A stretch of DNA of 64,000 bases from Alphaproteobacteria bacterium (GCA_965200925.1 OZ241738.1:491891-555890); one strand, 5' to 3'. Positions 5,481 to 31,683 are shown, counted from the first letter of the stretch. The notes: a model not told the origin generated them from the sequence alone. Program-made: numbers and translations.

Positions 5481-6173
5481 ATGCTGGCGGAGCTGGAGGC
5501 GGTCCTGGCAGCGGCCGGTGCGGACGCCGCGCGGGCCGACTACGCGGCGGCGATCATTGAGACCAACTGTTTGTCGAAGCCTACCGCGGCGACGCGCCGG
5601 CTCTCGTGCCAGCGGCTGCGCGAGCTCCACGGGCTGGACCCGGCGCTGCCGCTGTTCCGCGTGCTCCGGCGCCTCTGGGCCTTCGATCCGGCGGGCCGCC
5701 CGCTTCTGGCCTTGCTGTCGGCGCTCGCTCGGGATCCGCTGCTTGCCGCCACCGTTCCCGCGATCGTGTCCCTGCCGCCCGGCGCCGATTTCCAGCGTGC
5801 GCCGATGAAGGCCGCGCTGCGGAGCGCCGTGGGCGAGCGCCTGAATGAGGCGGTCCTCGACAAGACCTGCCGCAACGCGGCCAGCAGCTGGACGCAATCG
5901 GGGCATCTCGAAGGGCGGACGTTCAAGAAGCGGCGGCGGGTCACGGCCTCCACGGCGGCCGTCGCCTTCGCCCTCTGGCTCGCCGGCGCCGCAGGCTGTC
6001 GCGGCGCTGGCGTCTTCGTCTCGGCGTGGCTGCGGCTGGCCGATTGCGGTCCCTCGCGGGCGCGCCGCCTGGCCCTGGAAGCGAAGCGGCTCGGCCTGAT
6101 CGACCTCCGGATGGCCGGCGATGTCGTCGAGCTCGACACGGCCCGGCTCGACCCCGCCGGAAGAGGGGTGTGA
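5481..6173 (+). CDS. brxA: BREX protein BrxA (DUF1819-like)
   Basis: First gene of a co-directional operon followed by BrxB and BrxC. Size ~230 aa; start ATG 5481 inside ORF 5364..6173. Assignment rests mainly on position and size. Confidence 0.55.
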   Translation: MLAELEAVLAAAGADAARADYAAAIIETNCLSKPTAATRRLSCQRLRELHGLDPALPLFRVLRRLWAFDPAGRPLLALLSALARDPLLAATVPAIVSLPPGADFQRAPMKAALRSAVGERLNEAVLDKTCRNAASSWTQSGHLEGRTFKKRRRVTASTAAVAFALWLAGAAGCRGAGVFVSAWLRLADCGPSRARRLALEAKRLGLIDLRMAGDVVELDTARLDPAGRGV

Positions 6174-6739
6174 CCGTGTCGCGCATCGAGGACCTCGCGG
6201 AAGCCTACGGCCGGCATATTGCGACGCCCTGGCAGCGGACGGTCGCCGGCGCCCAGCGTGTCGTGATGGTCGTCTACGACAAGGAGCAGGAGCGGATGCT
6301 GCGCGCCCGCAGGCTCGCCTTCGAGACCGCGACAAAGCGGGCCGGATACGCTTGGCTGGAGGTCGATCTGGCGCCGGCTTTCGCCGAATGGATGGCCGGC
6401 GACGAATACCGGGAGGCGTATTTCGCGACGCCCGAGGATCTGCGGCTGAAGCTCGACGCCGCGTTCCCGGACCATGTGGCCGGCCGCATCCGCGAGCGGC
6501 TGACTTCGGCGGACGCCACGGAGGCTTCCGTCGTCGCGGTCTTCGGCGCGGGCGCGCTCTTCGGCCTCGCGCGGGTCTCGCGAATCCTCGGCATGGTCGA
6601 GAGCGATATCCGCGGCCACCTCGTCCTTTTCTTCCCGGGTCAGTACGAACGGAACAACTACCGCTTGCTGGACGCGCGCGACGGCTGGAACTATCTCGCC
6701 GTGCCGATCACGCTGCGTGGCGCGGAGGAGCACGGATGA
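6170..6739 (+). CDS. brxB: BREX protein BrxB (DUF1788-like)
   Basis: ~190 aa. GTG 6170 overlaps the brxA stop (GTGA). Immediately precedes BrxC, whose ATG overlaps its stop (ATGA). Confidence 0.6.
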   Translation: MTVSRIEDLAEAYGRHIATPWQRTVAGAQRVVMVVYDKEQERMLRARRLAFETATKRAGYAWLEVDLAPAFAEWMAGDEYREAYFATPEDLRLKLDAAFPDHVAGRIRERLTSADATEASVVAVFGAGALFGLARVSRILGMVESDIRGHLVLFFPGQYERNNYRLLDARDGWNYLAVPITLRGAEEHG

Positions 6740-9700
6740 AGATCAAGGACGTCCTCCAGCGCGATCCTGCGGCGCACCCCCTCGTCAACAAGGGCCAGGC
6801 CCGGATCGCCGACCGCGAGGACGCGCAGGTGATGCGGGAGCTGCACGGCGAGCTCGCGACCTTCGTCTGCGAGGGCCAATATGCGGACGGCATCCAGAGG
6901 ATCGTCCGTTCGTTCCTCGACGATCTGGGCCGGACCAGCCAGCGCGGCGCCTGGGTCAGCGGCTTCTTCGGCAGCGGCAAGTCGCACCTCCTGAAGATGC
7001 TCTGCCACCTGTGGCGCAACACCGAATTCCCCGACGGGGCGACGGCGCGCAGCCTGGTTCCCGCGATCCCCGAAGATCTGGCCGCGCTGCTGCGCGAGCT
7101 CGACGTCGCCGCCCGGCGCGCCGGCGGCCTCATGGCCGCGGCCGGTTCGCTGCCCAGCGGCAGCACCGACCACGTGCGCCTCACCATCCTCGGGCTGCTG
7201 CTGCGCGCCGCCGGCCTGCCGGCGCAGTACCCCCAGGCCCGGTTCTGCCTGTGGCTGCACGCCGAGGGGCGCTTCGACGCCGTGAAATCCGCGGTCGAAG
7301 CGGAGGGCCGGCGCTTCGAGCGGGAGCTCAATGACCTCTATGTGAGCGGCGCGATCGCCCGCGCCGTCCTCGCCTGTGCCCCGTCCTTCGCGGCCGGCGA
7401 AGCCGAGGCCAGGCAAGCGATCAGGGCGCAATTCCCGCCCCAGGCCGCCGACATCGCGACGGCGGAGTTCCTGCGCACGGCCAAGGACGCCCTGGCGCAT
7501 GCTTCCGATAGTGAGGGCCGGGTGCCGTGCACACTCGTCGTGCTCGACGAAGTGCAGCAATATATCGGCGATTCGACCGAGCGTTCCATGCTCGTCACCG
7601 AAGTCGCGGAAGCCGTCGAAAAGCAGCTCGATAGCCACGTGATGATCGTCGGCGCGGGCCAGAGCGCGTTGACCGACGCGCCGCTCCTCCAGAAGCTGAT
7701 GGACCGCTTCACGATCCGCGTCCCGCTCTCCGACGCCGACGTGGAGACGGTCACCCGCAAGGTGCTGCTCCAGAAGAAACCCAGCGCCGTCGCCGCTCTG
7801 CGCGCGCTGCTCGAAAGGCACGGCGGCGAGATCTCGCGGCAACTCCAGGGGACCCGGCTGGGCGAGACCGCTGCGGACCGCGTGGCCCTTGCGGACGACT
7901 ACCCGCTGCTGCCGGTCCGCCGGCGTTTCTGGGACGCCTGCTTCCGCCAGATCGACGCGGCCGGCACCCACAGCCAGTTGCGTTCGCAGCTGCGCATCGT
8001 CCACGACGCCCTGGCCAGACTCTCCGACCGGCCGCTCGGCGCGGTCGTCGCCGGCGACGAACTGTTCGATGCGCTCGCGCCCGAGATGGTCAACACCGGC
8101 GTGCTGCTGCGGGAGATCAACGAACGGATCATCGAGGTCGGCGAGGCCGAAGGCGCGCTCGCGCGCCGCCTCTGCGGGCTGATCTTCCTGATCGGCAGGC
8201 TGGCGCGGGAGGCGGGAGCGGATACCGGCGTCCGGGCGACCGCAGACCACCTCGCCGATCTGGTCATCGACGATCTCGCCGCCGACAACGGCAAGCTCCG
8301 CAGCGCGGTCGAAACGACGCTCGGCAAGCTCGCCGGCAACGGCATCCTGATGCGGGTGGGCGAGGAATACCGCCTTCAGACCCGCCAGGGCGCCGAATGG
8401 GATCGGGAGTTCCGCAATCGGCAGACCCGCCTGAACAACGATTCCGCCGCGATCCAGCTTCGGCGCGACGCGCTTCTCCACGGAGAGATCGACAGGATCG
8501 TCCGCGGTCTGCGCATGGTCCAGGGGGCGGCGAAGGAACCCCGGCGCTTCGCCGTTCACCGGGGGGCGTCCCCGCCGCCCGCCGCCGACGGTTCCACGAT
8601 CCCGGTCTGGGTCCGCGACGGCTGGGCGGCGTCGGAGAAGGCGGCGGTGGAGGCGGCGCGGGCGGCGGGCGCCGCCGACCCGACGATTCACGTCTTCGTG
8701 CCCCGTCGTTCGGCGGACGATCTGCGCCGCCTGATCGTCGAGGCGGCCGCGGCCGAACAGGCGCTCGACGCGCGCGGCAACCCGACCGAGCCCGAAGGCC
8801 AGGAGGCGCGCCGGAGCATGGAGAGCCGTCGCGCCCGCGCCGAGGCCGGGCGCGACGCTCTGGTCCGCGACGTCGCCGCCAACGCCAAGGTCTTCCAGGG
8901 CGGCGGCAACGAGGTCCTTCTCGCGGCGCTGGAAGACCGCCTCCGGGCCGCCGGCGAGGACGCGCTCGCGCGCCTGTTCCCCCGCTTCAGGGAAGCCGAT
9001 GGCGCGGCGTGGCCGTCCGTCATCAAGCGTGCGCGTGACGGCGCCGACCACCCGCTCCAGCCGGTCGGGCACACGGACGCGGTGGAAAAGCACGCGGTCT
9101 GCCGGCAGGCGCTTGCCGAGATCGGCGTCGGCGCGTCCGGGGCCGCGTTGCGCAAGGCGCTGGCCGGCCCGCCCTTCGGTTGGCCGCGCGACGCCGTGGA
9201 CGCGGCGCTGATCGCGCTGCATCGCGCGCGGCATCTGTCCGCGACGCTGAACGGCGCGGCGCTCCCGCCAGGCGGGCTCGACCAGAACCGCATCGCGAAG
9301 GCGGCGTTCCGCGCCGAGCGCGCGGCCCTCTCGGTTCAGGATCGCTTGGTCCTGCGGAAGCTCTTCCAGGCCGCCGATCTTGCCTGCAAGAGTGGCGAGG
9401 AGGAAGCCCGGGCGAATGATTTCCTGGACACGCTTGCCGAACTCGCCCGTTCGGCCGGCGGTGAACCGCCGCTTCCCGTCCCGCCCGGTACGGTCGACGT
9501 CGAGGACGCGCGCCGGCTGGCCGGGAACGAACGGCTGGCGGCCATCCGCGACAAGGCCGACGAATGGGAAGGGAAGATCGCCGAGTGGCGCGCGGCGGCG
9601 AAGTCGATCGCCGCGCGTCTGCCGGCATGGCGCCTGGTCGAGCGGCTGGCGGCGCATGCCGAAGGGATCGAAGAGGCCGGGCCGCAGCGCCGCGAGGTGG

Positions 9701-10191
9701 CGGCGGTGCGCGACGGGCGGCAATTGCTGGCGGGCGCGGATCCGGCCGCCGCCATCCGCAAGGCGCTGGCGGACCTTCTCCGCGCTTCCGTCCGGGCCGG
9801 GTTCGAGGCCCTTGAGGCCGCCTTCGCCGAGGCCATGCGGACTCTCGACGCGAACGAAGCATGGCGAAAAGCCGCGCCCGCCGACCGCGAGGCGATCCTG
9901 AAAGAGGCGGGGCTGGCCGCACCGGCGAAGCCGGAGGTCGCGACCGACGAAGCCCTGGCCGACTGCCTCGACCGGCGCTCCCTTGCGGGCGTCCGCGCCG
10001 AGATCGACGCCGTCCCGGCACGCGCGGCCCGTGCCGTCGAGCGGGCGGCCCGGCTGCTGGAACCGAAGGTCCGCCCGGTCGCCCTGGAGCGGGCCACCTT
10101 GCGCGACGCCGCCGAGGTCGAGGCGTGGGCCGAGCGCCAGAAGAAGGCGCTGCTCGAAGCCGTCGCCGACGGCCCGGTGCTGGTGAATTGA
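6736..10191 (+). CDS. brxC: BREX P-loop ATPase BrxC/PglY (~1150 aa)
   Basis: MKIKDVLQRDP... N-terminus with Walker A GFFGSGKSHLLKMLCHLW. Large size and position between BrxB and PglX. Confidence 0.85.
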   Translation: MKIKDVLQRDPAAHPLVNKGQARIADREDAQVMRELHGELATFVCEGQYADGIQRIVRSFLDDLGRTSQRGAWVSGFFGSGKSHLLKMLCHLWRNTEFPDGATARSLVPAIPEDLAALLRELDVAARRAGGLMAAAGSLPSGSTDHVRLTILGLLLRAAGLPAQYPQARFCLWLHAEGRFDAVKSAVEAEGRRFERELNDLYVSGAIARAVLACAPSFAAGEAEARQAIRAQFPPQAADIATAEFLRTAKDALAHASDSEGRVPCTLVVLDEVQQYIGDSTERSMLVTEVAEAVEKQLDSHVMIVGAGQSALTDAPLLQKLMDRFTIRVPLSDADVETVTRKVLLQKKPSAVAALRALLERHGGEISRQLQGTRLGETAADRVALADDYPLLPVRRRFWDACFRQIDAAGTHSQLRSQLRIVHDALARLSDRPLGAVVAGDELFDALAPEMVNTGVLLREINERIIEVGEAEGALARRLCGLIFLIGRLAREAGADTGVRATADHLADLVIDDLAADNGKLRSAVETTLGKLAGNGILMRVGEEYRLQTRQGAEWDREFRNRQTRLNNDSAAIQLRRDALLHGEIDRIVRGLRMVQGAAKEPRRFAVHRGASPPPAADGSTIPVWVRDGWAASEKAAVEAARAAGAADPTIHVFVPRRSADDLRRLIVEAAAAEQALDARGNPTEPEGQEARRSMESRRARAEAGRDALVRDVAANAKVFQGGGNEVLLAALEDRLRAAGEDALARLFPRFREADGAAWPSVIKRARDGADHPLQPVGHTDAVEKHAVCRQALAEIGVGASGAALRKALAGPPFGWPRDAVDAALIALHRARHLSATLNGAALPPGGLDQNRIAKAAFRAERAALSVQDRLVLRKLFQAADLACKSGEEEARANDFLDTLAELARSAGGEPPLPVPPGTVDVEDARRLAGNERLAAIRDKADEWEGKIAEWRAAAKSIAARLPAWRLVERLAAHAEGIEEAGPQRREVAAVRDGRQLLAGADPAAAIRKALADLLRASVRAGFEALEAAFAEAMRTLDANEAWRKAAPADREAILKEAGLAAPAKPEVATDEALADCLDRRSLAGVRAEIDAVPARAARAVERAARLLEPKVRPVALERATLRDAAEVEAWAERQKKALLEAVADGPVLVN

Positions 10192-10203: not shown

Positions 10204-11403
10204 ATGTCCTTCATCCGCCGTATCGGCCTGCGCGGCCTGCTGTCGTTTCCGCCCGACATGGAGCCGTTCGATTTCCAGCCGCTGAACGTGCTGATCGGCC
10301 CCAACGGCTCCGGGAAGACGAACCTGATCGAGGCGCTGGAGCTTCTCCGCGCGACGCCAACGGATTTCGCCGCCGCGATCCGCGATGGCGGCGGCGCGGC
10401 GGAATGGTTGTGGAAAGGCGAGAATCCAGCGAGGGCGGCGACGGTAGACATCGAGACCGGAGACTCGACGCCATCGACCGGCCGGCCGTTGCGCTATCTT
10501 CTCCAATTCACGTCGTCGAATAGCCGGGTCGAGGTGCTCGACGAAGCGATCGAGGAAGTGAAGCCCGACATTGGACATGACGAACCGTATTTCTATTATC
10601 ACTTCCAGCAGGGACGACCGGCCATTAACGTCAAAGAGACAACGGAAGGTGGTTCTGGTGGACATGTGGAAAGGCGCCTCAAGCGAGACGACATTTTGCC
10701 GGATCAGTCTGTCCTGATGCAACGCAAGGAACCGGATCTCTACCCGGAAGTCGCTTGGATCGGGCGCATGTTCGGGCAAATCCAGACGTTCCGCGACTGG
10801 ACCTTCGGGCGTTATGCTCCATTAAGGCAGCCACAACCTGCGGATCTGCCGGAGGATCGACTGCTGCCCGATAATCGCAACTTAGCCTTGCTTCTCAATC
10901 AAGTCGAACACCGTGATCCTCGGCGGTTCAACGAACTCCTTAAGCGATTCTTCCCACGTTTTGAACGGATGTCGACCAGGATCTCCGGCGGCACGGTGCA
11001 ATTCTATCTGCATGAGTCCGGTTTCGAGTCACCGATCCCCCCGACACGGCTGTCGGATGGGACGGTGCGCTTTGTCGCTATCCTCGCGACCCTGCTGGCG
11101 CCGTCGCCGTCGCCGCTCGTATGCATTGAAGAACCGGAGCTCGGGCTGCACCCCGACGCGCTGACGCTGGTTGCCGAGCTTCTGGTAGAGGCATCCGAGC
11201 GTATGCAACTTGTGGTCACCACGCATTCGGATGCACTTGTCTCCGCGTTGACGAACCAACCGGAATCTGTCGTTGTTTGCGAGCGGCCGGGTGCGGGTAC
11301 CGTGCTGGAACGACTCGATCCCGAAAAGTTGGCGCACTGGTTGAACGAGGATTATGGGCTTGGCGACTTGTGGCGTATCGGAAAACTGGGCGCCAATCCA
11401 TGA
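10204..11403 (+). CDS. ABC-type ATPase (AAA_21/AAA_15-like; OLD/AriA/PtuA-like N-terminal ATPase), module 1
   Basis: Walker A LIGPNGSGKTNLIEALELL. Walker B/D-loop LVCIEEPELGLHPDA. H-loop VVTTHS. 399 aa. Confidence 0.75.
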   Translation: MSFIRRIGLRGLLSFPPDMEPFDFQPLNVLIGPNGSGKTNLIEALELLRATPTDFAAAIRDGGGAAEWLWKGENPARAATVDIETGDSTPSTGRPLRYLLQFTSSNSRVEVLDEAIEEVKPDIGHDEPYFYYHFQQGRPAINVKETTEGGSGGHVERRLKRDDILPDQSVLMQRKEPDLYPEVAWIGRMFGQIQTFRDWTFGRYAPLRQPQPADLPEDRLLPDNRNLALLLNQVEHRDPRRFNELLKRFFPRFERMSTRISGGTVQFYLHESGFESPIPPTRLSDGTVRFVAILATLLAPSPSPLVCIEEPELGLHPDALTLVAELLVEASERMQLVVTTHSDALVSALTNQPESVVVCERPGAGTVLERLDPEKLAHWLNEDYGLGDLWRIGKLGANP

Positions 11404-12011
11404 GTTCCGTCGAAATCTATATGGAGGGGGGAGGGGATCATCGAAATGGTAAGGAACGTCTTCGTCTCGGTATGGATGCGTTTCTTAGCGAGATGAAGGG
11501 CATGGCCAGGTCCCGGTCGACCCGCTGGAGACTCGTTCTTTGTGGTGGGCGGAACCAGGCATATCGGGCGTTTGTGGAAGCGTGTCGGAGCGACCGGGAC
11601 AGCATCTTCGTGCTGCTGGTCGATTCGGAAGGTCCCGTAAATTCCTCGCCGCGCGCCCATCTGGCCGCGGACGGGTGGGACCTGGACGGAGTGGACGAAG
11701 ACCGGGTTCATCTGATGGTCCAGACGATGGAAACCTGGATCGTCGCCGACCCCGAGGCCCTTGCCGCCTATTACAGGCAGAGCTTTCGAGCGAACGCTCT
11801 CCCGGCGGCGGACGACCTGGAAACGGTCGCCAAGAACGAGGTCGCCAGTGCCCTGGACCGGGCGACCGAGCAGACGCAGAAAGGCCGCTACCACAAGATC
11901 CACCACGCCGCCGACCTCCTCGCGTGCATCGACCCGGCGAAGGCGCGGGCGCGCTGCCGCCATTGCGAGCGCCTGTTCGCCACCCTCGACGCGGCCGTCG
12001 CGGCGGGGTGA
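11400..12011 (+). CDS. Small TOPRIM-like partner protein (DUF4276-like; alternatively DUF4435/AriB-like), module 1
   Basis: ATG 11400 overlaps the ATPase stop (ATGA). ~203 aa. N-terminal EIYMEGGGD (conserved Glu) and LLVDSEG (acidic motif) are consistent with TOPRIM/OLD-nuclease-like small partners of AAA_21 ATPases. Confidence 0.55.
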   Translation: MSSVEIYMEGGGDHRNGKERLRLGMDAFLSEMKGMARSRSTRWRLVLCGGRNQAYRAFVEACRSDRDSIFVLLVDSEGPVNSSPRAHLAADGWDLDGVDEDRVHLMVQTMETWIVADPEALAAYYRQSFRANALPAADDLETVAKNEVASALDRATEQTQKGRYHKIHHAADLLACIDPAKARARCRHCERLFATLDAAVAAG

Positions 12012-12100
12012 GGCGATGAGCGCGCTTTCGCGGGAATCGCGCCGGGCGCTGGAGAGGGCCGTCCGCAAGGCCCGCGCCGCCGCCGAAGCGGGCGCGGGCA
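11984..12100. repeat. ~117-bp direct duplication, copy A, spanning the DUF4276-1 3' end and the first 28 codons of pglX (near-identical copy B at 14003-14119)
   Basis: gcggccgtcgcggcggggtgaggcgatgagcgcgctttcgcgggaatcgcgccgggcgctggagagggccgtccgcaaggcccgcgccgccgccga is identical in both copies, then 2 mismatches and divergence after gggcaag. Confidence 0.85.
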
Positions 12101-12132
12101 AGATGAAGTTGGGGGGAGGGGAGGAGAGATGA
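12016..12132 (+). pseudogene. pglX 5' stub (MSALSRESRRALERAVRKARAAAEAGAGK + 9 unrelated codons); insertion scar
   Basis: Translation is identical to the first 28 residues of full-length PglX at 14025. Terminates after KLGGGEER; its stop overlaps the ATPase-2 start (ATGA). Confidence 0.7.
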
Positions 12133-13355
12133 ACATGACCGACGAACAGCTTGCTGGCGTTCCGCGGATCGAGCGTTTGAAGGTGCGGAATTTTCGGGTG
12201 TTGAAAGACGTCGATATAAGGGATTTGACGCCTTTGACGGTGCTGCTTGGACCGAACGGGAGCGGCAAAACCACCTTGTTCGACGTGTTCGCGTTCCTCT
12301 CCGAATCCTTCGAGGACGGCCTGAGGCGCGCCTGGGATCGACGCGGGCGGGCCAGAGAGCTCAAGACCCGTGGCGCCAAAGGCCCGGTCATCGTCGAACT
12401 CAAATACCGCGAGCGACCGGGCACACCGCTTATCACCTATCACCTGGAGGTGGACGAGCATGATGGCGCGCCCAGTGTCGTCCGTGAATGGCTATGGTGG
12501 AAACGGCACAGCTATGGACGCCCGTTTCGTTTTCTCGAATACCGAAATGGCGGAGGCACAGCGATCAGCGGCGAACAACCCGATGTCGAGGAGGATAGAA
12601 TCCCAATTCCTCTCAAGTCTCCCGACCTGCTGGCGGTCAACACGCTTGGGCAGCTCCGGGAGCATCCGCGCGTGGCCGCGCTGCGCGACTTCATTATGAA
12701 CTGGCACGTATCCTACCTTTCCGTGGATGACGCGCGCGGGCATCCGGAAGCGGGCCCCGAGAAGTGGTTGACCAGGACCGGCGATAATCTCGCCAACGTG
12801 ATTCAGTATCTGAAGGAGAATCATCCGAAGCGGTTGAAGAGGATATTCAAATTATTGGGGCGGCGGGTGCCGCATGTCGAGAAGGTTCGCGCTGAAACCA
12901 TGCCGGACGGGCGACTGCTTCTGCAAATCAAGGACGCGCCGTTCGATCATCCGGTTCAGGCGCGCTTCGCTTCCCATGGAACGCTCAAGATGCTGGCCTA
13001 TCTGGTGTTGCTGCATGACCGGAATCCGTCGCCGTTCATCGGTATCGAGGAACCGGAGAATTTCCTGCATCCGAGGCTACTTCCCGAATTGGCGGAAGAA
13101 TGCCGCGCGGCCAGCGCGCGCACGCAACTGCTCGTCACGACGCACTCCCCGTTTTTTCTGAACGCGCTTCGCCCCGAGGAAGTCCGCGTTTTGTGGCGCG
13201 ACGAAACCGGCCACGCGCAGGTCGAGCAGACCTCTGGTCTCGAGGGAGTGGCGGAGTTCATGGATAACGGGGCGCTGCTCGGGCAGCTGTGGGCAGAAGG
13301 GCAGTTCGGCGTCGGCGATCCACTGGTCCGTCGCGGCGGAGGACGCCGCCGATGA
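12129..13355 (+). CDS. ABC-type ATPase (AAA_21-like), module 2, diverged paralogue of the 10204 gene
   Basis: RIERLKVRNFRVLKDVDI...LTVLLGPNGSGKTTLFDVFAFL (Walker A). FIGIEEPENFLHP (Walker B). LVTTHSPFF (H-loop). 408 aa. Confidence 0.75.
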   Translation: MNMTDEQLAGVPRIERLKVRNFRVLKDVDIRDLTPLTVLLGPNGSGKTTLFDVFAFLSESFEDGLRRAWDRRGRARELKTRGAKGPVIVELKYRERPGTPLITYHLEVDEHDGAPSVVREWLWWKRHSYGRPFRFLEYRNGGGTAISGEQPDVEEDRIPIPLKSPDLLAVNTLGQLREHPRVAALRDFIMNWHVSYLSVDDARGHPEAGPEKWLTRTGDNLANVIQYLKENHPKRLKRIFKLLGRRVPHVEKVRAETMPDGRLLLQIKDAPFDHPVQARFASHGTLKMLAYLVLLHDRNPSPFIGIEEPENFLHPRLLPELAEECRAASARTQLLVTTHSPFFLNALRPEEVRVLWRDETGHAQVEQTSGLEGVAEFMDNGALLGQLWAEGQFGVGDPLVRRGGGRRR

Positions 13356-17735: not shown

Positions 17736-20494
17736 CCTTCCAACGACAGGCCACGGAAAAGTGGCGTAACGAAGTCCCCGGCGCGCGCTGGTTCAAGGCC
17801 GACCTGCACGTCCATACCATCGACGACCACGCCGGCCGGGCGAAAATGCCGGACGGCCTGTCGGGCGATCCGGCGGACCCACAGACGCTGGAGGACTACG
17901 CGCGGCGCTTTCTCCGGGCCGTCGTGGAACGCGGCGTGCAGGTCGTCGGGCTGACGCCGCATTCGCCGCGCGCGGGGGACGGCTCGGACACGAGCGCCGT
18001 CTGGCGCATCGTCGAGGAGTGGAACGAAGGAACCGACGACGACGGCATCCCGTTCCGGAAGAAGATATACGCCGTGTTCCCCGGATTCGAACCGTCGCTC
18101 CGGGAGGGAAAAGAAGGCTTGCATCTCCTGTTTCTGTTCGATCCCGAAATCGGCCGCGATCGTTATCTGAGAGTCTTCGATCTTGTTATGGGCGGCGTTT
18201 CGCCTTGGCAAGGCGGAACCTTGCAGATCTCCGGCAAGCGTGCGGACCAAGCTTTCGACGATTTGAAGAATTTCCGGGAGCGTGAACACTCCGTCGGCGA
18301 GGGTTGGAATTCTCTTGTCCTCGCCCCCCATATCGACGCCGACAAGGGTTTGCTCGGCACGCAGAAAGCCCAGGTTCTGCAACTCTTTGATCACGGAGCA
18401 ATCGCCGGTCTGGAACTCGGCGACGACAAGCTGCCGAAAGAAATTTTGCAGAACCGTCTGTGGCTCCGCGATGGAATGGAAACGCATCGTCAGGCGTTCT
18501 TCCACGCCAGCGACGCCTACGGTCCGGGCGACGTCGGCCGTCGCCATACGTGGATCAAGCTCGCGAGTCCGCGCATCGAAGCCCTGCGCCAAGCGTTCGT
18601 CGCCAGCGATTCGCGCGTGCGGATCGGCTTCGAGAAAGGCAGCGATGGCGCGCTCCGGCCGATCGACCATCCGCCCGCCGTTATATCCGGAAACCGCCCT
18701 TGGCTGAGAGAGGTGACGGTACGCGGCGGCGTTTCGTTCTTCGGCGGCCAGGAAGATGGTAAGCCGAGAGGGACCCGCTTCCGGCTGAATCCGGACCTGA
18801 CCTGCATCATCGGCGGCAGCATGACCGGCAAGAGCACCTTGCTCGACGGCCTGCGCTTGCATGTCGGTGCGCCGTTGCCCTCCAACGAGGCGGTCCGCAG
18901 GCAGGTCGAAACCCGGGGCCGGAACGTTTTCGCCGCCGGTTCGCCCGAGGTTGCGCTCGACTGCCCTGGCCAGGACCCCACTGCACCACCGTTGGAACGG
19001 TGGCCCGCCCGGTTCTTCGCCCAGAACGAATTGCAGCGCCTCTCCCAAGAGAGCGCGGCCGCTGAAGACATTCTTGCGCGCCTGATTCCGTCCGAAATAG
19101 AAGGAATCGATGGGCGCGGCGCCGAGTTGAAACGCCTCGACAAGCGCCTCGCCGATCTGGCCAGGCAGCTCGCGAAACTCGATGAAACCGTCGGGGAAGC
19201 GGAGCAGGATTGTCAACGCACCGGCGACGCGAAAGTGGCGCTCGCCGCCTTTTCCGAAGCCGGCGTGGACGATCTCCACCAAGCCAGCCGTGAGCGGCGG
19301 GCCTGGGAATCGACGGCGAGCACCGTTCAGACGGCTCTCCGAGGTCCTGTCAGGGAAATCGTTCGAGCCGCGCGGGAAATCGACTTGCCGCCCGTGGGCG
19401 GGAAGCAGGTGGAGATTCCGTCAGAGAATTCGGTCGATTGGCGAAAGCTGGATCTGGACGGAAGACAACGCCGGATCGTCGAACGCCTGGAAGCCGTGTC
19501 GCAAGAGGCGGAGAAATGGATCGCTGACATTCTCGACGTCTCCTTGAAAATGGGCAAACGCGAGGCCGCCGTTCGTATCGAAGTGGAGCGAGCTCTTGCC
19601 GCCCGCGGATACGACGCCGGGACACTCAAGGAGATTCAGCAACTCACACGCCAAGCATCGCTGTTTCCCAATTACGCGGCGCATCGCGACGATACGCGCC
19701 GCCGACTCGCGGCGGACGAGAAGGCGTTCGGCGACTCGTCGAAGGAGCGCCGTGCTCTCGTCGAAGAGCAGCGACGGGCCTTCGCGCGCGTTGCCCAAGG
19801 CGTGAACCGGGAATTCGGAGGCCGGATCCGTGTGCACCGGATTGACGACGCCGACACCCGGACTCTCGACGATTTCTTGAGAGGGCTACGGCAAAAGGGC
19901 GTGACGCGCTGGTGGAACGACTTCGACCCGACGAAGAAACCCTCGCCCGACAGGCTGGTCGCGTGCCTCGCCGCTGGTTCCCTCGCCGAAGTCGGCATGA
20001 GCGATGCCGTCCAGGAAAGGTTCCGCGAGAGCGTCACCAAGTCGAAGCGGCGTGAGTTGGCCGCGCTGCGGTGCCCGGACCGTTACGTTCTCGAACTGCG
20101 GATGGACGACGGTTCCTACCGCCCTCTGGACGATCTTTCTGGAGGCCAACGAGTCAGCGTTCTTCTCTCCCTTCTTCTGGAAACCGAAGATGCCCGCCCG
20201 CTGGTGATCGACCAACCCGAGGACGAACTCGACAACCGGTTTCTGTCGGAAACGGTCCTCCCGGCACTGAAGAAACTGCGCGGTCGGCGGCAAGTCATCG
20301 TCGCGACGCACAAGGCGGAGATCGTCGTCAATGGAGACCCCGACATGGTGATCCTTCTCGACGCGACGGCCCACCACGGGCGCGTGGCATGCGCCGGCGC
20401 GATCGAGGAACCGGCCGTTCGCGACGCCATCGTGCGCACTGTGGACGGCGGGGAGGAAGCATTCCGTCTTCGACGGCGGAAATACGGATTCTGA
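17732..20494 (+). CDS. PHP-domain phosphoesterase fused to an SbcC/RecF-like ABC ATPase (920 aa); nested accessory gene between pglX and pglZ
   Basis: N-terminal PHP motifs: FKADLHVHTIDDHAG, LTPHSP, APHIDADKG. RecF/SbcC-like N-lobe with Walker A: LTCIIGGSMTGKSTLLDGLRL. Long coiled-coil-like middle region. ABC signature and Walker B/D-loop: LSGGQRVSVLLSLLLE...LVIDQPEDELD. ATG overlaps the pglX stop. Confidence 0.7.
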   Translation: MTFQRQATEKWRNEVPGARWFKADLHVHTIDDHAGRAKMPDGLSGDPADPQTLEDYARRFLRAVVERGVQVVGLTPHSPRAGDGSDTSAVWRIVEEWNEGTDDDGIPFRKKIYAVFPGFEPSLREGKEGLHLLFLFDPEIGRDRYLRVFDLVMGGVSPWQGGTLQISGKRADQAFDDLKNFREREHSVGEGWNSLVLAPHIDADKGLLGTQKAQVLQLFDHGAIAGLELGDDKLPKEILQNRLWLRDGMETHRQAFFHASDAYGPGDVGRRHTWIKLASPRIEALRQAFVASDSRVRIGFEKGSDGALRPIDHPPAVISGNRPWLREVTVRGGVSFFGGQEDGKPRGTRFRLNPDLTCIIGGSMTGKSTLLDGLRLHVGAPLPSNEAVRRQVETRGRNVFAAGSPEVALDCPGQDPTAPPLERWPARFFAQNELQRLSQESAAAEDILARLIPSEIEGIDGRGAELKRLDKRLADLARQLAKLDETVGEAEQDCQRTGDAKVALAAFSEAGVDDLHQASRERRAWESTASTVQTALRGPVREIVRAAREIDLPPVGGKQVEIPSENSVDWRKLDLDGRQRRIVERLEAVSQEAEKWIADILDVSLKMGKREAAVRIEVERALAARGYDAGTLKEIQQLTRQASLFPNYAAHRDDTRRRLAADEKAFGDSSKERRALVEEQRRAFARVAQGVNREFGGRIRVHRIDDADTRTLDDFLRGLRQKGVTRWWNDFDPTKKPSPDRLVACLAAGSLAEVGMSDAVQERFRESVTKSKRRELAALRCPDRYVLELRMDDGSYRPLDDLSGGQRVSVLLSLLLETEDARPLVIDQPEDELDNRFLSETVLPALKKLRGRRQVIVATHKAEIVVNGDPDMVILLDATAHHGRVACAGAIEEPAVRDAIVRTVDGGEEAFRLRRRKYGF

Positions 20495-20503: not shown

Positions 20504-21706
20504 ATGGAATGGGCGAACGTACTGCGACGCATAGAAGCGGGCGAAGACCGAACCACCGAGTTCAAGCGGGAGCTCGGAAACGACCTGTCCGCCGTCGGCA
20601 AGGCGATTTGCGCGTTCGCGAACGGTGAAGGCGGCTTGATCGTCCTTGGAATCGACGACGCGGGATCCATCATCGGGCTGAACGCAGATCCGCACAAGGT
20701 GCATGAGCGATTGACCGATTTCCTGCAAACCGGATGCAGCGCGCCGGTCGGGGCGCGCTATGGACGGCACGAGGTCGCGAACGGCTGGGTCCACTGGATC
20801 GAGGCGCCCCGCATCCGGGGACCGGAACCGCTTCGCTACCGCGGGCGCACCTACATTCGCCGCGAACGAAGCAGCGTGGAGCCCTCTCCCCACGAGCTTC
20901 AGGAATTGTTCAACGCCTTCGGCTTTGTCTTAACCGAAGAACAGGCGATTCTGGCGGCGAGTGTCGAAGACATCGATATCAAGTCGTTCCGGTCGTTCCT
21001 GCGCAGACGGGGGCTCGAAACGGAGGAAGAGCCGCAACCCTCGATCGAGGACGATCTGCGCAATGCCCGCGTTCTGCGCGACGTCGACGGAACGCTTCGC
21101 CCCACTCTCTACGGGCTGATGGTCTTCGGCCGGGATCCCCAGGCGCATCCGCACACCGGAAGCTTCTGGATCCAATGCACCGCCTATGCGGGCCGCGACC
21201 GGGCGTCGGACGTCATCCTGGTCGGGGAGGGCAAGGGGCACCTCGACGAACAGGTGCGCCGGGCGCTCGGCTGGCTGAAGAGCCTGGGGTGGACCGAATC
21301 CTATCCCGGCATCCTTCGCGAGGATCGCCCGCTGATCCCCGAACCCGCGGTTCGCGAAGCGCTGGTGAACGCCGTCGCCCACCGCGACTACGCGCTCATC
21401 GGCTCGCCCGTGCAGCTCGAAGTGTTCCGCGACCGGGCCGCCGTCACCAGCCCCGGCACGCTCCCCAACCACATGACGGTCGAAAACGTCCGGTTCGGCG
21501 GTCTCCCACGCTCCCGCAACGAGTGGATGGCGAACGCCATGGTCGTGGCGCGCCTGATGGAAAAGCGGGGGCTCGGTTGGCTCAGGATGCGCCGCGAAAT
21601 GCAGGCGTTCAACGGCACCGAACCGGAACTGGTCAACGACGAAGGCGGCAAATTCGTCCGCGTGACCTTCCGCCTGAAGCCGGAACCCGCCGGGGAAAAA
21701 GCGTGA
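20504..21706 (+). CDS. AlbA_2/Schlafen-like divergent-AAA ATP-binding protein with C-terminal HATPase_c_4-like region (putative nucleic-acid-binding)
   Basis: N-terminus ...EDRTTEFKRELGND...AICAFANGEGGLIVLGIDDAGSIIGL is typical of the AlbA_2 (Schlafen group) domain. 400 aa. The PglZ GTG start overlaps its stop. Confidence 0.5.
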   Translation: MEWANVLRRIEAGEDRTTEFKRELGNDLSAVGKAICAFANGEGGLIVLGIDDAGSIIGLNADPHKVHERLTDFLQTGCSAPVGARYGRHEVANGWVHWIEAPRIRGPEPLRYRGRTYIRRERSSVEPSPHELQELFNAFGFVLTEEQAILAASVEDIDIKSFRSFLRRRGLETEEEPQPSIEDDLRNARVLRDVDGTLRPTLYGLMVFGRDPQAHPHTGSFWIQCTAYAGRDRASDVILVGEGKGHLDEQVRRALGWLKSLGWTESYPGILREDRPLIPEPAVREALVNAVAHRDYALIGSPVQLEVFRDRAAVTSPGTLPNHMTVENVRFGGLPRSRNEWMANAMVVARLMEKRGLGWLRMRREMQAFNGTEPELVNDEGGKFVRVTFRLKPEPAGEKA

Positions 21707-24030
21707 CGACCGCCACCCTGATCGACGCGATCCGCGAGTCGATGGCCGCGAGCCTGCACGGGCCGGACGGCGCGGAACCGCCCGCCGCCCTGCTCTGGAC
21801 CGACCCGGACGGCCAGTGGCGGCCGCTGATCCCCGCGCTCATGAAGGCGCTGCCAGAACTCTACGCCCTCGGCGCCTACGCGCCCGCGGAACGGCGCGGA
21901 CCGGTCATCTGGCTCAAATGCGTCGTCGAACGGACCCTGCCCGACGCGGCGCCGGAAGTGGGCGCGACGCCGGTCCTCTACCTGCCCGAGGTGGGGCGCC
22001 AGACGCTGCGGGCCGCCGACGATTGCGACGCCACGCTCCAGCCGCTGGTCGAGCTGCAATATCGCGGCGCCGTCTGGCATCAGCGCAACGGCCGCGACTG
22101 GACGGTCGAGGCGTTCCTCGCTTCCGACGACGCGCTCGGGCTCGACGTGGCGCGCGACGCGGCGACCCGCGCCGCCGCGTTGCGCGCCCTGCCCTTGCTG
22201 GCGGCGGAGCCGGTCGCGACGCTGCGCGGCCGCCGGCTCGAGGCGGAGGATTTCGACCGCCTGTCGATCGGCGATCCGATCCGCGATCTGTTGACCTGGA
22301 TGAGCGACGCCGCGGCGTTCGAGGCGGACTGCGACCCGGACCGCTGGGCGGCGTTTCGCGACGTCTGCGCGCGCGAATTCGCGTTCGACCCGGAGACGGA
22401 CGGCCTCCGCGCCGCCGCGGACACGCTGGCCGCGGGCGGCGGCAAGTGGAACGAGGCTTGGCGGCGTTTCTGCGATGTGCCGCTGCTTTACCCCGGTATT
22501 CCCGCCGTTCTGCGCACGGCGCGGCCCAAGGACCTGTTGCACCCGGTCGAACCGTCCCGCCGGCCGGGCCTGAACGAGGAGCGGGAAGACCGGCTTCGCG
22601 CGGCGCTGGAAGCGGCCGCCGGGCTTCCCCACGCCGACGCCTGCGACAGGGTCGCGGCGCTGGACGACGAACACAGGGAACGCCGCGGCTGGGTGTGGGC
22701 ACAGCTCGGCGAGAGCCCCTGCGCGTTGGCGCTGGAGCCGCTCGGCCGCCTCGCCCGCGCGGCGAAGCGCGAGGCGGAGGCCGCCTCGGCCGAAGCGCTG
22801 GCCGCGGACTACGCCACGCAAGGGTGGCGCTGCGACCGGGCGGCGATCGAGGCGCTGGCCTGCCCCAAACCCGGCGCCGGACACGGTCTCGTCACCAGCG
22901 TCGTGCGGGCGCTGTACGAACCGTGGCTCGACCGCGCGGCGCGGCGCTTCCAGAGCCTGCTTTCCGCCGGGCATCCCGATCCGGGCGCGTTGACGAGCGG
23001 CGTCGACGCCGAACCCGGGGTCTGCATCCTCTTCGCCGACGGGCTGCGCTTCGATCTCGGGGCCATGCTGGGCGAGCGGCTGGAGGCGCGCGGCGTCCGG
23101 GTGCGGCTCGGGCATCGCATGGCGCCGATCCCGACCGTGACCGCCACTGCGAAGCCGCTGGCTTCCCCCGCCCATGCGGCCTGTGCCGGCGCGGCGAGCG
23201 CGGAGGATTTCTGCCCCGCGGTTGCCGGCGCCGGCAAGCCGGCGACCGCCGCGCGGCTTCGCGCCCTCATGGTGCGGCAGGGCATCGCGATTCCGGAGGC
23301 CGGCGAAATACCCATGGCGCTCGACGGCGGCGCCGGCGCCTGGATGGAAACGGGAAAGATCGACACGCTCGGCCATTCCCTGGACGCCGCACTCGCCCGC
23401 CAGATCGACGCGGAGATCGACGCCATCGCCGACCGTGTCGATGCGCTTCTCGCGGCCGGCTGGCGCAAGGTCCGGGTCGTGACCGATCACGGCTGGTTGC
23501 TGCTTGCGGGCGGATTGCCGCGGGTCGATCTGCCGCCGTCGTTGGTCGAAACCAAATGGTCCCGCTGCGCCGCCGTTCGAGGCGAGTCGGAACCCGTCGT
23601 TCCCACCTACCCGTGGCACTGGGACCCGTCGCTGCGGATCGCCTCGCCGCCGGGAATCGGCGCCTTCCGTGCCGGCACGGAATACGCCCACGGCGGCGTC
23701 AGTCCCCAGGAATGCGTCGTGCCCGATTTGCTCGCGGAGCGCGACGCGGCCGTCGCCGCCGCGCGGATAACGAGCGTGGTCTGGCGTGGGATGCGCTGCC
23801 GGATCGCCGTCGAGACCGGCGCGCCGGGGGCGAAAGTCGACCTGCGGCTCAACCGCAGGCAGGCCGAATCCAGCATCGCCGCCGCGGTCCGGGCGCTGAA
23901 CGATGCCGGCGAGGCGAGCCTCGTCGTTCCCGACGACGAGCACGAAGGCGCCGCGGCCCTGGTCGTGGTTCTGGACGAAGCGGGGCGGGTGCTCGACGAC
24001 CGCCCGACCACCGTCGGCGACGGAGGGTGA
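21703..24030 (+). CDS. pglZ: BREX alkaline-phosphatase-superfamily protein PglZ (~775 aa)
   Basis: N-terminus LIDAIRESMAASLHGPDG...LLWTDPDGQW. PglZ-domain motif VVTDHGWLLL. Position before brxL. Start GTG 21703 (alternative ATG 21742). Confidence 0.85.
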   Translation: MTTATLIDAIRESMAASLHGPDGAEPPAALLWTDPDGQWRPLIPALMKALPELYALGAYAPAERRGPVIWLKCVVERTLPDAAPEVGATPVLYLPEVGRQTLRAADDCDATLQPLVELQYRGAVWHQRNGRDWTVEAFLASDDALGLDVARDAATRAAALRALPLLAAEPVATLRGRRLEAEDFDRLSIGDPIRDLLTWMSDAAAFEADCDPDRWAAFRDVCAREFAFDPETDGLRAAADTLAAGGGKWNEAWRRFCDVPLLYPGIPAVLRTARPKDLLHPVEPSRRPGLNEEREDRLRAALEAAAGLPHADACDRVAALDDEHRERRGWVWAQLGESPCALALEPLGRLARAAKREAEAASAEALAADYATQGWRCDRAAIEALACPKPGAGHGLVTSVVRALYEPWLDRAARRFQSLLSAGHPDPGALTSGVDAEPGVCILFADGLRFDLGAMLGERLEARGVRVRLGHRMAPIPTVTATAKPLASPAHAACAGAASAEDFCPAVAGAGKPATAARLRALMVRQGIAIPEAGEIPMALDGGAGAWMETGKIDTLGHSLDAALARQIDAEIDAIADRVDALLAAGWRKVRVVTDHGWLLLAGGLPRVDLPPSLVETKWSRCAAVRGESEPVVPTYPWHWDPSLRIASPPGIGAFRAGTEYAHGGVSPQECVVPDLLAERDAAVAAARITSVVWRGMRCRIAVETGAPGAKVDLRLNRRQAESSIAAAVRALNDAGEASLVVPDDEHEGAAALVVVLDEAGRVLDDRPTTVGDGG

Positions 24031-24032
24031 CG

Positions 24033-26081
24033 ATGGAACTCGACCGTCTGGACGAACTGGCCGCCGCCGCCTTCGATGGCTACCTGGTGCGCAAGGATCT
24101 GGTCCGCAGATACGCGCGCCAGTACCCGGTGCCGACCTACGTCGTCGAATTCCTCCTCGGGCGCTACTGCGCGAGCGTCGACGAGGCGGAGATCGAAGAA
24201 GGGCTGCGCATCGTCGAACGGTTGCTGAAGGACCGGACCGTCCGCACCGGCGACGAGGAGCTGTTCAAGGCGCGGGCGCGGGAGAACGGGTCGATCCGCC
24301 TCATCGATCTGGTCAAGGCGCGGCTGGACGCGCGCAACGATTGCTATGTCGCCGAACTGCCCAGCCTGAATCTGCGCCACGTCCGCATCGACGACGAACT
24401 CGTCGGCGACAACGAGCGCATGCTGACCGACGGCTTCTATGCCGAGGTCACGCTCGGCTACGACGGCGTCATCGCTCAGGAGAAGGATGGGCGGCCTTTC
24501 AAGGCGGAGGCACTGCGGCCGATCCAGATGTCGAAGCCGGATGTGCTCGACGTCTACGCCGGCGCGCGGCGCGGGTTCGCGACCGGCGAGTGGATCGATT
24601 TCCTGCTGCGCTCCGTCGGCCTGGAGCCGGCGGCGTTCGACGAGCGCGCGAAGCGGGTGGCGCTGCTGCGCATGGTCCCGTTCGTGGAGCGGAACTACAA
24701 TCTGGTGGAGCTCGGGCCGCGCGGGACCGGCAAGAGCCATCTCTTCCAGCAGATATCGCCCTACGCGCATCTGGTTTCCGGCGGCAAGGCGACCGTCGCC
24801 AAGATGTTCGTCAACAACGCCAACGGCCAGCGCGGCCTGGTCTGCCGCTACGACGTGGTCTGCTTCGACGAGGTCGCCGGCATCTCCTTCGACCAGAAGG
24901 ACGGCGTCGGCATCATGAAGGGCTACATGGCCTCGGGCCAGTTCAGCCGCGGCAAGGAGAACATCCGTGCCGACGGCAGCTTGGTGATGGTCGGCAACCT
25001 GGATGCCGACATCGAGCAGCAGCAGCGGATCGGCCATCTGTTGCGCCCGCTACCGCCCGAGATGCGGGACGACACCGCGTTCATGGACCGCCTGCATGCG
25101 TTCGCGCCGGGCTGGGACTACCCGAAGCTCGCGCCGGGTGCGCATCTGACCGACCATTTCGGCCTCGTCAGCGATTTCCTCAGCGAGTGCTGGAGCCGGC
25201 TGCGCAGCGGCAACCGCGTCTCTGCGATGCAGAGCCGGGTGCATCTGGGCGGCGCGTTGAGCGGGCGCGACATCGAGGCGGTCAACAAGACCGTCGGCGG
25301 CCTCATCAAGCTGCTGTTCCCGGACCCGGACATGCCGGTCGCCGACGACGATCTCGAATGGACCGTGCGGCTGGCCCTGGAAGCGCGCCGCCGCGTCAAG
25401 GAACAGCAGAAGCGCGTCTTCAAGAGCGAGTTCCGCAACACCCATTTCAGCTACATCCTGGGTACGGAGGGCGTCGAGCGGTTCGTGGCGACGCCGGAGC
25501 TGCACAGCGACGAGGCGATCGACAGCGACCCGTTGCCGCCGGGGCAGGTCTGGGGCGTCGGCGCCGGGTCGGGCGGCGCCGGGGCCGGCCTCTACCGCAT
25601 CGACGTCACCTGCGGTCCGGGCGGCGGCGTGCGCATCCTGAACCAGCCGACTCCGCCCGCGTTCCGAGAGAGCGTGCGGGTGGGCGAACAGAACCTGTAT
25701 GCGCGGGCAAAGCAGCTGGTCGGCGACCGCAACCCGCGCGAGGACGAGTTCACGGTCCAGATGCGTCCCATGGACGCCACCATGTCGGGCGAGGGGCTGG
25801 GGGTGCCGGTGCTGGTCGCCCTCTGCGGGGCCCTGCTCGGCCGCAACACCCGCGGCGGCGCCATCGTCGCCGGGGCGCTCAATCTCGGCGGCTCGATCGA
25901 GCCGGTCCCGAACGCGGCGCGGGTCGCGGAGCTCGCCGTCGACAAGCAGGCCCAGACGCTGCTGATGCCCGTCTCCGCGCGCCGGCAGCTCGACGACTTG
26001 CCCGACGATCTGTGGACCAGGATCAACATCGAGTTCTACAAGGACGGCCCCGACGGCGTATTCAAGGCGCTGATGGAGTGA
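24033..26081 (+). CDS. brxL: BREX Lon-like protease BrxL (~682 aa)
   Basis: MELDRLDELAAAAFDGYLVRKDLVRRYARQYPVPTYVVEFLLGRYC N-terminus. AAA+ Walker A GPRGTGKSHLFQQISPYA. Lon-like C-terminus. Last gene of the operon. Confidence 0.85.
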   Translation: MELDRLDELAAAAFDGYLVRKDLVRRYARQYPVPTYVVEFLLGRYCASVDEAEIEEGLRIVERLLKDRTVRTGDEELFKARARENGSIRLIDLVKARLDARNDCYVAELPSLNLRHVRIDDELVGDNERMLTDGFYAEVTLGYDGVIAQEKDGRPFKAEALRPIQMSKPDVLDVYAGARRGFATGEWIDFLLRSVGLEPAAFDERAKRVALLRMVPFVERNYNLVELGPRGTGKSHLFQQISPYAHLVSGGKATVAKMFVNNANGQRGLVCRYDVVCFDEVAGISFDQKDGVGIMKGYMASGQFSRGKENIRADGSLVMVGNLDADIEQQQRIGHLLRPLPPEMRDDTAFMDRLHAFAPGWDYPKLAPGAHLTDHFGLVSDFLSECWSRLRSGNRVSAMQSRVHLGGALSGRDIEAVNKTVGGLIKLLFPDPDMPVADDDLEWTVRLALEARRRVKEQQKRVFKSEFRNTHFSYILGTEGVERFVATPELHSDEAIDSDPLPPGQVWGVGAGSGGAGAGLYRIDVTCGPGGGVRILNQPTPPAFRESVRVGEQNLYARAKQLVGDRNPREDEFTVQMRPMDATMSGEGLGVPVLVALCGALLGRNTRGGAIVAGALNLGGSIEPVPNAARVAELAVDKQAQTLLMPVSARRQLDDLPDDLWTRINIEFYKDGPDGVFKALME

Positions 26082-31680: not shown

Positions 31681-31683
31681 TCC

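Follow-up and report, generated by a model that had tools for sequence, protein, structure and literature searches.

The stretch of DNA considered here, 64,000 nucleotides (nt) from an Alphaproteobacteria bacterium (GCA_965200925.1 OZ241738.1:491891-555890) and referred to below as the window, carries on its + strand a bacteriophage exclusion (BREX) operon of type 1, which occupies positions 5364-26081 and is composed of twelve intact, co-directional genes within 20,718 nt. Six of these are the core BREX genes, and the other six are arranged as two pairs of HEC-01 type between brxC and pglX and one TrlF-TrlG-like pair between pglX and pglZ. The locus is probably a functional-looking chromosomal BREX of the PglZ type B clade, into which three autonomous two-gene modules were gained horizontally at two hot-spot junctions. 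Along the strand, with protein lengths in amino acids (aa), the operon has the following features.

5364-6173, + strand: brxA, 269 aa; the PADLOC BrxA model PDLC02450 (3.9e-92) is aligned with residues 17-264 of the open reading frame (ORF)
6170-6739, + strand: brxB, 189 aa, with a GTG start that overlaps the brxA stop codon (GTGA)
6736-10191, + strand: brxC, 1151 aa, in ATGA overlap with brxB
10204-11403, + strand: hec01A-1, OLD-type ABC ATPase of the first embedded pair, 399 aa, with its start 12 nt past brxC
11400-12011, + strand: hec01B-1, DUF4276 gene and TOPRIM-like partner, 203 aa, in ATGA overlap with hec01A-1
11987-12102: left copy of a 116-nt direct repeat, made of the last 25 nt of hec01B-1, GGCG and the first 87 nt of pglX
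12016-12132, + strand: remnant ORF of the pglX 5' end (MSALSRESRRALERAVRKARAAAEAGAGK...), 38 codons, the TGA of which overlaps the hec01A-2 ATG
12129-13355, + strand: hec01A-2, the second and divergent OLD-type ABC ATPase, 408 aa
13352-13969, + strand: hec01B-2, DUF4276 gene and TOPRIM nuclease-like partner, 205 aa, in ATGA overlap with hec01A-2
13996-14111: right copy of the 116-nt direct repeat, in which a relic of the hec01B-1 stop region immediately precedes the true start of pglX
14025-17735, + strand: pglX, BREX methyltransferase and specificity subunit, 1236 aa
14391-14577, + strand: in-frame tandem repeat within pglX, 21 bp in 8.9 copies, from Tandem Repeats Finder (TRF)
16167-16752, + strand: block of low guanine-cytosine (GC) content within pglX, presumably a swapped target-recognition region
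17732-20494, + strand: trlF-like gene, 920 aa, in ATGA overlap with pglX
20504-21706, + strand: trlG-like gene, 400 aa, 9 nt after the trlF-like gene and in GTGA overlap with pglZ
21703-24030, + strand: pglZ, 775 aa
24033-26081, + strand: brxL, Lon-like protease/ATPase, 682 aa, 2 nt after pglZ

The twelve ORFs showed neither frameshifts nor internal stops and are all full-length with respect to the profiles and to relatives. A preliminary description of this DNA, made from its sequence alone, had the operon and brxA begin at 5481; the start is most likely the ATG at 5364, 117 nt earlier, because the alignment with the BrxA profile already begins at residue 17 of the longer ORF and because the BrxA of a close relative (L082) is also of 269 aa. 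The additional DNA, first put at approximately 6.5 kb, measures 3,833 nt between brxC and pglX and 3,967 nt between pglX and pglZ, i.e., 7.8 kb. The chain of overlapping start and stop codons that had been described holds in part: seven of the twelve junctions on the map are ATGA or GTGA overlaps (the 38-codon remnant ORF being counted as a unit), but the other five are gaps of 12, 4, 55, 9 and 2 nt. When annotated genes alone are counted, hec01B-1 and hec01A-2 are 117 nt apart. Both the alignment with relatives and the duplication scar described below place the start of pglX at ATG 14025.

All six type 1 BREX genes are matched by PADLOC models, with E-values of 3.9e-92 for BrxA, 2.8e-73 for BrxB, 1.7e-271 for PglZ and 1.7e-285 for BrxL, and with scores of 1393 bits for BrxC (over its full length) and 1377 bits for PglX (PDLC02528). 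The curated cut-offs of NCBIfam are exceeded by BREX_BrxC (724 bits vs. 400), by 'BREX-1 system phosphatase PglZ type B' (851.7 bits vs. 400) and by BrxL TIGR02688 (441 bits vs. 329). The NCBIfam model for the PglX of BREX-1 (BREX_1_MTaseX) gives 302 bits at a cut-off of 500, the gene being covered by the PADLOC PglX model, and NCBIfam returned no match for BrxA and BrxB, both of which are covered by PADLOC models. Pfam recognizes BrxB (32.2 bits, cut-off 26.8), the Eco57I domain of PglX (31.3 bits, cut-off 25.3), BrxL_ATPase (2.2e-125) and BrxL_N (1e-41). Taken alone, it gave nothing for BrxA or PglZ and a sub-threshold DUF6079 match for BrxC, so that the subfamily models of PADLOC and NCBIfam are required for these three genes. 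The complete, co-directional type 1 BREX of the preliminary description is thus borne out by the PADLOC profiles of all six genes and, for three of them, by NCBIfam; checked with Pfam alone, the same assignments would have resembled a failure. The base composition of the inserted genes is foreign, as the GC content at third codon positions (GC3) is 0.67-0.80 in the embedded genes (0.70 in hec01A-1 and 0.72 in hec01A-2) vs. 0.87-0.92 in five of the six core genes; in pglX the low-GC block brings the overall GC3 down to 0.82.

The two ATPase/TOPRIM-like pairs that had been seen between brxC and pglX are recovered by AAA_21, DUF4276 and HEC-01 models. The hec01A-1 protein is matched by PADLOC HEC-01A PDLC04177 (6.8e-154) and Pfam AAA_21 (3.4e-39), that of hec01B-1 by HEC-01B PDLC04201 (2.5e-69) and DUF4276 (2.1e-21), that of hec01A-2 by HEC-01A PDLC04182 (3.3e-154) and that of hec01B-2 by HEC-01B (5.6e-85). 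In both pairs an AAA_21/AAA_15 ATPase gene is followed, with an ATGA overlap, by a DUF4276 gene, which is the HEC-01 gene order of PADLOC. A TOPRIM/OLD fold was obtained in a structure model of one of the two partners, hec01B-2; the DUF4276 profile matched no PDB sequence, and for this reason the link between DUF4276 and TOPRIM rests on the structure model. The two ATPases are 27% identical and no BLASTP similarity was detected between the two DUF4276 proteins, which rules out a tandem duplication and indicates that the pairs are different, unrelated subtypes. Free-standing pairs of the HEC-01-2 type were found at two loci (L167 and L168), and homologues of HEC-01-1 were seen solely within other BREX loci. 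PARIS was considered as an identity of the pairs and rejected, since their TOPRIM partner is DUF4276 whereas AriB is DUF4435; the AriA models of PADLOC match at 1e-31 to 1e-36, and the HEC-01A models far better (1e-154). Walker A, Walker B and H-loop motifs, read by eye, are found in all three embedded ATPases (hec01A-1, hec01A-2 and the trlF-like protein).

Between pglX and pglZ a PHP-ABC ATPase and an AlbA_2-like protein had been described, and both domain assignments are confirmed. The trlF-like protein has an N-terminal PHP nuclease-like domain (PHP fold), the histidine/aspartate pattern of which was read by eye, and the rest of the protein matches the ABC heads of SMC3 and Rad50, as an ABC ATPase of SMC/Rad50 type with an inserted coiled coil. 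With the NCBIfam model 'TrlF family AAA-like ATPase' (NF045780) it is aligned over residues 17-919 of 920 at 338.1 bits (cut-off 350). Ppl was rejected as an identity of this protein, because the Ppl model NF042955 gives 135 bits at a cut-off of 1000, with its best stretch at residues 783-914, and the PADLOC Ppl match (1.1e-31) is likewise limited to the C-terminal ATPase part. The trlG-like protein is matched by Pfam SLFN_AlbA_2 (1.9e-19, residues 14-125) and HATPase_c_4 (1e-19, residues 300-389), and its residues E14-DRTT-E19-F-K21 fit the Schlafen motif E-x4-(E/D)-x-K, as judged by eye and with equivalence of the sites assumed. The temperature restriction locus (TRL) of Photorhabdus laumondii is composed of trlR-trlF-trlG, in which the large trlF gene carries the annotation histidinol phosphatase, TrlG contains AlbA_2 at 14-128 and HATPase_c_4 at 298-365, and point mutations in trlG allow growth at 36 °C (Hapeshi et al., 2020).

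The association of the two genes was followed beyond the window. A trlG-like gene comes directly after the trlF-like gene in all three close relatives (L081-L083); an AlbA-like match lies just 3' of the trlF homologue in five of the six related BREX loci that have one, and downstream of 23 of the 68 distant metagenomic trlF homologues with enough downstream sequence. BREX genes adjoin the trlF homologue in just two of 80 metagenomic loci. A TrlF-like/Schlafen pair stands alone among housekeeping genes (L084:10001-13963), lies between hsdS and hsdR in a type I restriction-modification (RM) operon on a Citrobacter IncC plasmid (L165:7001-10914), and, on a Vibrio parahaemolyticus plasmid, has pglX on one side and a type A pglZ on the other (L166:3914-7827); in RefSeq the Vibrio and Citrobacter cases appear as TrlF followed by an 'RNA-binding domain protein'. 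The sequences thus point to one TrlF-TrlG-type module formed by the PHP-ATPase and AlbA_2 genes, and the four modules listed in the preliminary description are better counted as three, each of two genes.

For comparison, 80 related BREX loci were fetched with a PglX query, being the best 80 of 592 hits in one search, and gene boundaries in them were set by tblastn and naive ORF calling in high-GC DNA. The nearest BREX relatives come from Rhodospirillales, Bradyrhizobium, Rhizomicrobium and Bryobacterales, with identities of 57-59% in PglX and 64-70% in BrxC. Five loci among the closest relatives (L001-L004 and L021) are compact six-gene operons of ~12.7 kb without inserts, and the extra genes are therefore variable cargo. 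Their absence in the closest relatives, the existence of free-standing copies and the GC3 values all place the three modules outside core BREX, so the earlier view of the extra genes as insertions stands. Gaps longer than 600 bp separate brxC from pglX in 21 of 76 loci (28%) and pglX from pglZ in 41 of 71 (58%); at brxA-brxB, brxB-brxC and pglZ-brxL such gaps occur in 0 of 66-69 related loci. The two positions of extra genes in the window are exactly these two junctions, which are embedding hot spots in this BREX clade. Inserts of the related loci include HEC-01-type ATPases, which 11 loci have at one junction or the other (eight with a recognizable DUF4276 partner), Schlafen/AlbA_2 proteins in 12 loci and the AbiU/AIPR family in 10, as well as GmrSD/HEC-06, a CBASS-type cyclase, Dsr1, PsyrT, PDC-M38A and helicases. 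The load of the window, 7.8 kb, is high and is surpassed by those of L059 (13.7 kb) and L056 (8.7 kb). The insert ORFs of related loci were mostly called on the + strand, and all nested genes of the window are on the + strand. A family of ~370 aa was also observed directly after pglX in seven of the 80 loci (L005:13531-14646, and L007, L017, L026, L032, L041 and L055); it has no match in Pfam, PADLOC or NCBIfam.

The order in which part of this cargo arrived can be read from a scar. The second HEC-01 cassette is flanked by the 116-nt direct repeat, the two copies of which (11987-12102 and 13996-14111) are 97% identical. In each copy the last 25 nt of hec01B-1, including its TGA, are followed by GGCG and by the first 87 nt of pglX; the 117 nt between hec01B-1 and hec01A-2 are a repeat of the pglX start, and the first 29 residues of the remnant ORF are identical to the N-terminus of PglX. 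The same junction sequence is found in L082 and L083, where a hec01B-1-type gene runs directly into pglX. The duplication of this junction shows that HEC-01(2) arrived last: the 1.9-kb cassette entered 87 nt into pglX, with duplication of the junction and with a full pglX copy kept intact. The duplication leaves this pglX with its original upstream context, and since the stop codon of the relic ORF overlaps the ATG of hec01A-2 (ATGA), the coupled reading-frame chain is unbroken.

Three relatives place this event in a series. In L081 (trlF-like protein 94% identical) the 12-gene layout of the window is found together with the pair of 116-nt repeats, which is absent from L082 and L083. L082 (86% identical) has one HEC-01 pair only. 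In L083 (81% identical) a HEC-01(2)-type cassette separates brxC from the HEC-01(1)-type pair; after it comes a relic ORF of 39 codons from the brxC 3' end (4557-4676), and a 99-nt repeat of 78% identity (L083:2600-2698 and 4599-4697) comprises the brxC 3' end and the ATPase 5' end; this placement looks like an independent insertion with the same type of scar. The comparison indicates that the earlier state was brxC-HEC01(1)-pglX and that HEC01(2) was added later, at different places in different lineages. At the other junction, a different insert between pglX and pglZ in L007 is flanked by a 140-nt repeat (74%) of the pglZ 5' end (L007:14692-14831 and 18948-19087), which includes an ORF for a 159-aa PglZ-like fragment. 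Conserved cassette ends or att-like sites were looked for at the HEC-01-2 cassettes and none was found in five contexts. Candidate mechanisms of insertion are single-crossover integration of a circle with local homology, homology-facilitated illegitimate recombination, and template switching.

It might be asked if the two BREX junctions act as a platform for cassette capture, at which insertion is recurrent and duplicative. Three observations suggest it, i.e., the scars of 116 nt (window and L081), 99 nt (L083) and 140 nt (L007), each of these events having preserved an intact copy of the BREX gene concerned. A specific mechanism, rather than chance illegitimate recombination, would explain how defence operons stack modules and stay unbroken. 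A related idea is that TrlF-TrlG is a two-gene defence system, with a PHP/ABC-ATPase sensor and a Schlafen RNase effector, in which case the temperature restriction of Photorhabdus may be autoimmunity. Both ideas are put forward tentatively, and we consider them doubtful.

The pglX gene itself varies within the series. The repeat at 14391-14577 consists of 8.9 copies of 21 bp, which are 98-100% mutually identical and free of indels (98% matches in TRF), and its product, (ATGDRPL)n, lies in a loop of the N-terminal domain. There are 1.9 copies in L081 and none in L082, L083, L001 and L002. The repeat is in frame and therefore does not constitute an on/off switch. Further downstream, the ~590 nt at 16167-16752 lack DNA homology to L081, L082 and L083, in spite of 79-97% identity in the flanks. 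GC is 0.45-0.49 in two 300-nt windows there (16125-16724), vs. 69% for the window overall. The protein encoded by this block agrees best, at 57% and 53%, with that of the distant loci L052 and L043, and at 36% with that of the close relative L082. The block fits a swapped target-recognition region, which would alter the specificity of BREX. Tandem pglX pairs were observed in three other loci (L038:6441-13453, L071:8043-14740 and L139:260-6981). In L038 and L071 the ends of the copies are 81-91% identical and the middles differ, the copies possibly providing two specificities or a recombination substrate; for L139 the tandem arrangement alone was recorded.

As to how the locus would work, the literature on BREX leads one to expect that host DNA is methylated via PglX and that the replication of unmethylated phage DNA is blocked. 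The nested modules would be co-expressed with BREX and would serve as independent or back-up layers of abortive infection. In the HEC-01 pairs the OLD-family ABC ATPase is the presumed sensor and the DUF4276 TOPRIM nuclease the presumed effector; in the third module, the trlG-like protein would contribute an RNase domain of Schlafen type, joined to a GHKL/histidine-kinase-like domain. Nuclease or tRNase effectors would be set free by the ATPase sensors, maybe in response to phage anti-restriction proteins, which by analogy may be the trigger as in PARIS/Ocr and PrrC/Stp. A single transcript across the operon is plausible, given the tight junctions and the lack of an intergenic terminator on the + strand. 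The scan found no + strand intergenic terminator-like site and the promoter scan was unhelpful, which at 69% GC is weak evidence.

Several points weigh against the picture of a working BREX with autonomous defence cargo. Co-transcription is not to be assumed, since the pair nested in the Salmonella StySA BREX is driven by promoters of its own and at least two transcripts arise from that locus (Zaworski et al., 2022). Functional coupling of BREX with the nested modules is an analogy and not an observation. E. coli carrying HEC-01 was not protected from any of the phages assayed (Payne et al., 2024), so that the defence role of HEC-01 is presumed from context. The trlF-like protein scores 12 bits under the NCBI cut-off and its identity to annotated TrlF is 23-25%. 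For a TRL operon the sole published phenotype concerns growth, which is restricted by temperature, and not defence against phage (Hapeshi et al., 2020); no literature joining TrlF with defence terms was found. Of seven bacterial Schlafen genes assayed in E. coli, only two conferred protection. Finally, the hot-spot statistics depend on the best 80 of 592 hits and on boundaries derived by tblastn.

Some of these points could also be read in favor of a different explanation, namely that the nested pairs are selfish passengers of an addiction or toxin-like kind, which gathered in a permissive 'genomic sink' and are carried along when BREX is transferred horizontally, with no BREX interplay and perhaps no role in defence. 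Of the three pairs, two (the HEC-01-2 type and the TrlF-TrlG-like one) do occur free-standing among housekeeping genes, their composition is foreign, and the lack of conserved cassette ends fits illegitimate insertion. HEC-01 conferred no defence in the assays, TrlG is growth-restricting in Photorhabdus, and the ideas of a genomic sink and of selfish linkage were raised by Payne et al. themselves. However, the pairs are strictly limited to two junctions, the nested genes are all on the + strand in the window as are most insert ORFs of the relatives, and translational coupling is kept even over the scar. Moreover, intact pairs are kept in relatives with 81-94% identical trlF-like proteins, and validated defence genes fill the same slots elsewhere. 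We regard this explanation as unlikely.

Another possibility, that a variant BREX has the extra genes as genuine accessory subunits and that the 12-gene unit is one system, is to be given very little credence. The tightly chained junctions, with ATGA and GTGA overlaps into pglX and pglZ, and the conservation of the 12-gene layout in L081 speak for it, as does the recurrence of OLD-ABC/TOPRIM and Schlafen modules as BREX 'back-up effectors' (NAR 2026 survey). Yet the closest BREX relatives manage with six genes and without inserts, L082 is devoid of one pair, and the order of pairs is different in L083. In addition, two of the three pairs are found free of BREX elsewhere, TrlF-TrlG also within a type I RM operon, and the nested pair of Salmonella made no contribution to BREX modification. 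That insertions have disrupted the operon, so that it is decaying and has lost its activity as a defence system, is scarcely credible, since against the 7.8 kb of foreign DNA inside it, the pglX fragment at 12016-12132 and the repeat expansion within pglX stand twelve full-length genes without frameshifts or internal stops, an intact pglX after the duplication and a repeat that is in frame. A type 1 BREX with three horizontally gained modules at two hot-spot junctions is thus the reading retained here.

The surroundings of the operon were also inspected. Upstream lies a divergent gene, and downstream, just past brxL, a putative antitoxin gene:

4093-5382, - strand: DUF6765 gene (1.5e-89), divergent from brxA
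26128-26790, - strand: HicB-like antitoxin ORF, without a Pfam match at the E-value limit used

The Pfam match of the DUF6765 protein begins at residue 54, so that its true start is probably near 5220, which leaves ~140 nt of upstream region shared with brxA; this region contains no BrxR/WYL regulator gene. The equivalent of the HicB-like gene in L081 (L081:18400-19337) is called HicB-like_2 and is followed by a short integrase fragment, which may mark the edge of an island. The flanks at 124-4231 and 30223-37986 consist of ordinary chromosomal genes, among them glycosyltransferase/methyltransferase, metallophosphoesterase, cytidylyltransferase and dnaX (36160-37986). No tRNA gene, as a target of integration, was found in the whole window.

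The preliminary description had ranked the composite arrangement as the most unusual feature of the window, which gives it too much weight. BrxU was reported between brxC and pglX on pEFER (Picton et al., 2021), and an ATPase+DUF4435 pair (PARIS) between pglX and pglZ in Salmonella StySA (Zaworski et al., 2022). Embedded genes were also surveyed on a large scale, with a discovery method based on them and BREX as a frequent host (Payne et al., 2024), and modules of OLD-ABC/TOPRIM and of Schlafen-histidine-kinase-wHTH type were described as recurrent BREX-linked back-up effectors (NAR 2026 survey). Embedding at both junctions being published, and found as inserts in 28 and 58% of the related loci, the locus is a further example of a known arrangement; as a composite BREX it is an ordinary one, and existing knowledge is left unchanged. 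What may be new is that insertion in this clade is strictly limited to two junctions, together with the duplication scars, the TrlF-TrlG-type assignment, and the polymorphisms of the pglX repeat and specificity block. The value of the locus lies in a well-resolved natural series of four relatives, with trlF-like proteins 81-100% identical, which differ in the number and order of HEC-01 cassettes, in the copies of the pglX repeat (0, 2 or 9) and in the target-recognition block of pglX. Since one insertion is still scarred, the order of events is readable. The series therefore offers material on how cassettes enter defence operons without breaking them, on whether nested ABC-ATPase/nuclease pairs guard BREX against anti-restriction proteins, and on whether TrlF-TrlG, so far known for temperature restriction in Photorhabdus only, is a defence module.

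Among known systems, the loci of pEFER and StySA resemble the window in that a canonical six-gene BREX holds foreign co-oriented genes at brxC-pglX or at pglX-pglZ. They differ from it in that here both junctions are filled at once, with three modules, six genes and 7.8 kb; the cargo is twice HEC-01 plus a TrlF-TrlG-like pair instead of GmrSD or PARIS, and the BREX that hosts it, from a high-GC bacterium, is of the PglZ type B clade. PARIS, composed of AriA (ABC ATPase) and AriB (DUF4435 TOPRIM tRNase), is like the HEC-01 pairs a two-gene system with an OLD-type ABC ATPase and a separate TOPRIM nuclease, and it is likewise nested in BREX, that of Salmonella. HEC-01 itself ('Hma-embedded candidate 01' in PADLOC) was defined as embedded in Hma, whereas the pairs of the window are embedded in BREX and, unlike the type system, bring two very different subtypes next to each other. 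The TRL operon shares with the third module the gene order trlF-trlG and TrlG domains that are near-identical in position; it differs by the regulator gene trlR upstream, which is absent in the window, where the overlap of the trlF-like gene with the pglX stop codon leaves no room for it. Ppl, a single-gene PHP + ATPase defence system, has the PHP and ABC ATPase content of the trlF-like protein, whereas the window has a conserved gene pair. The trlG-like protein resembles the pSlfn-HisKinase class, in which a Schlafen nuclease with the E-x4-E-x-K motif is fused to a histidine-kinase-like domain, this fusion being the commonest pSlfn architecture.

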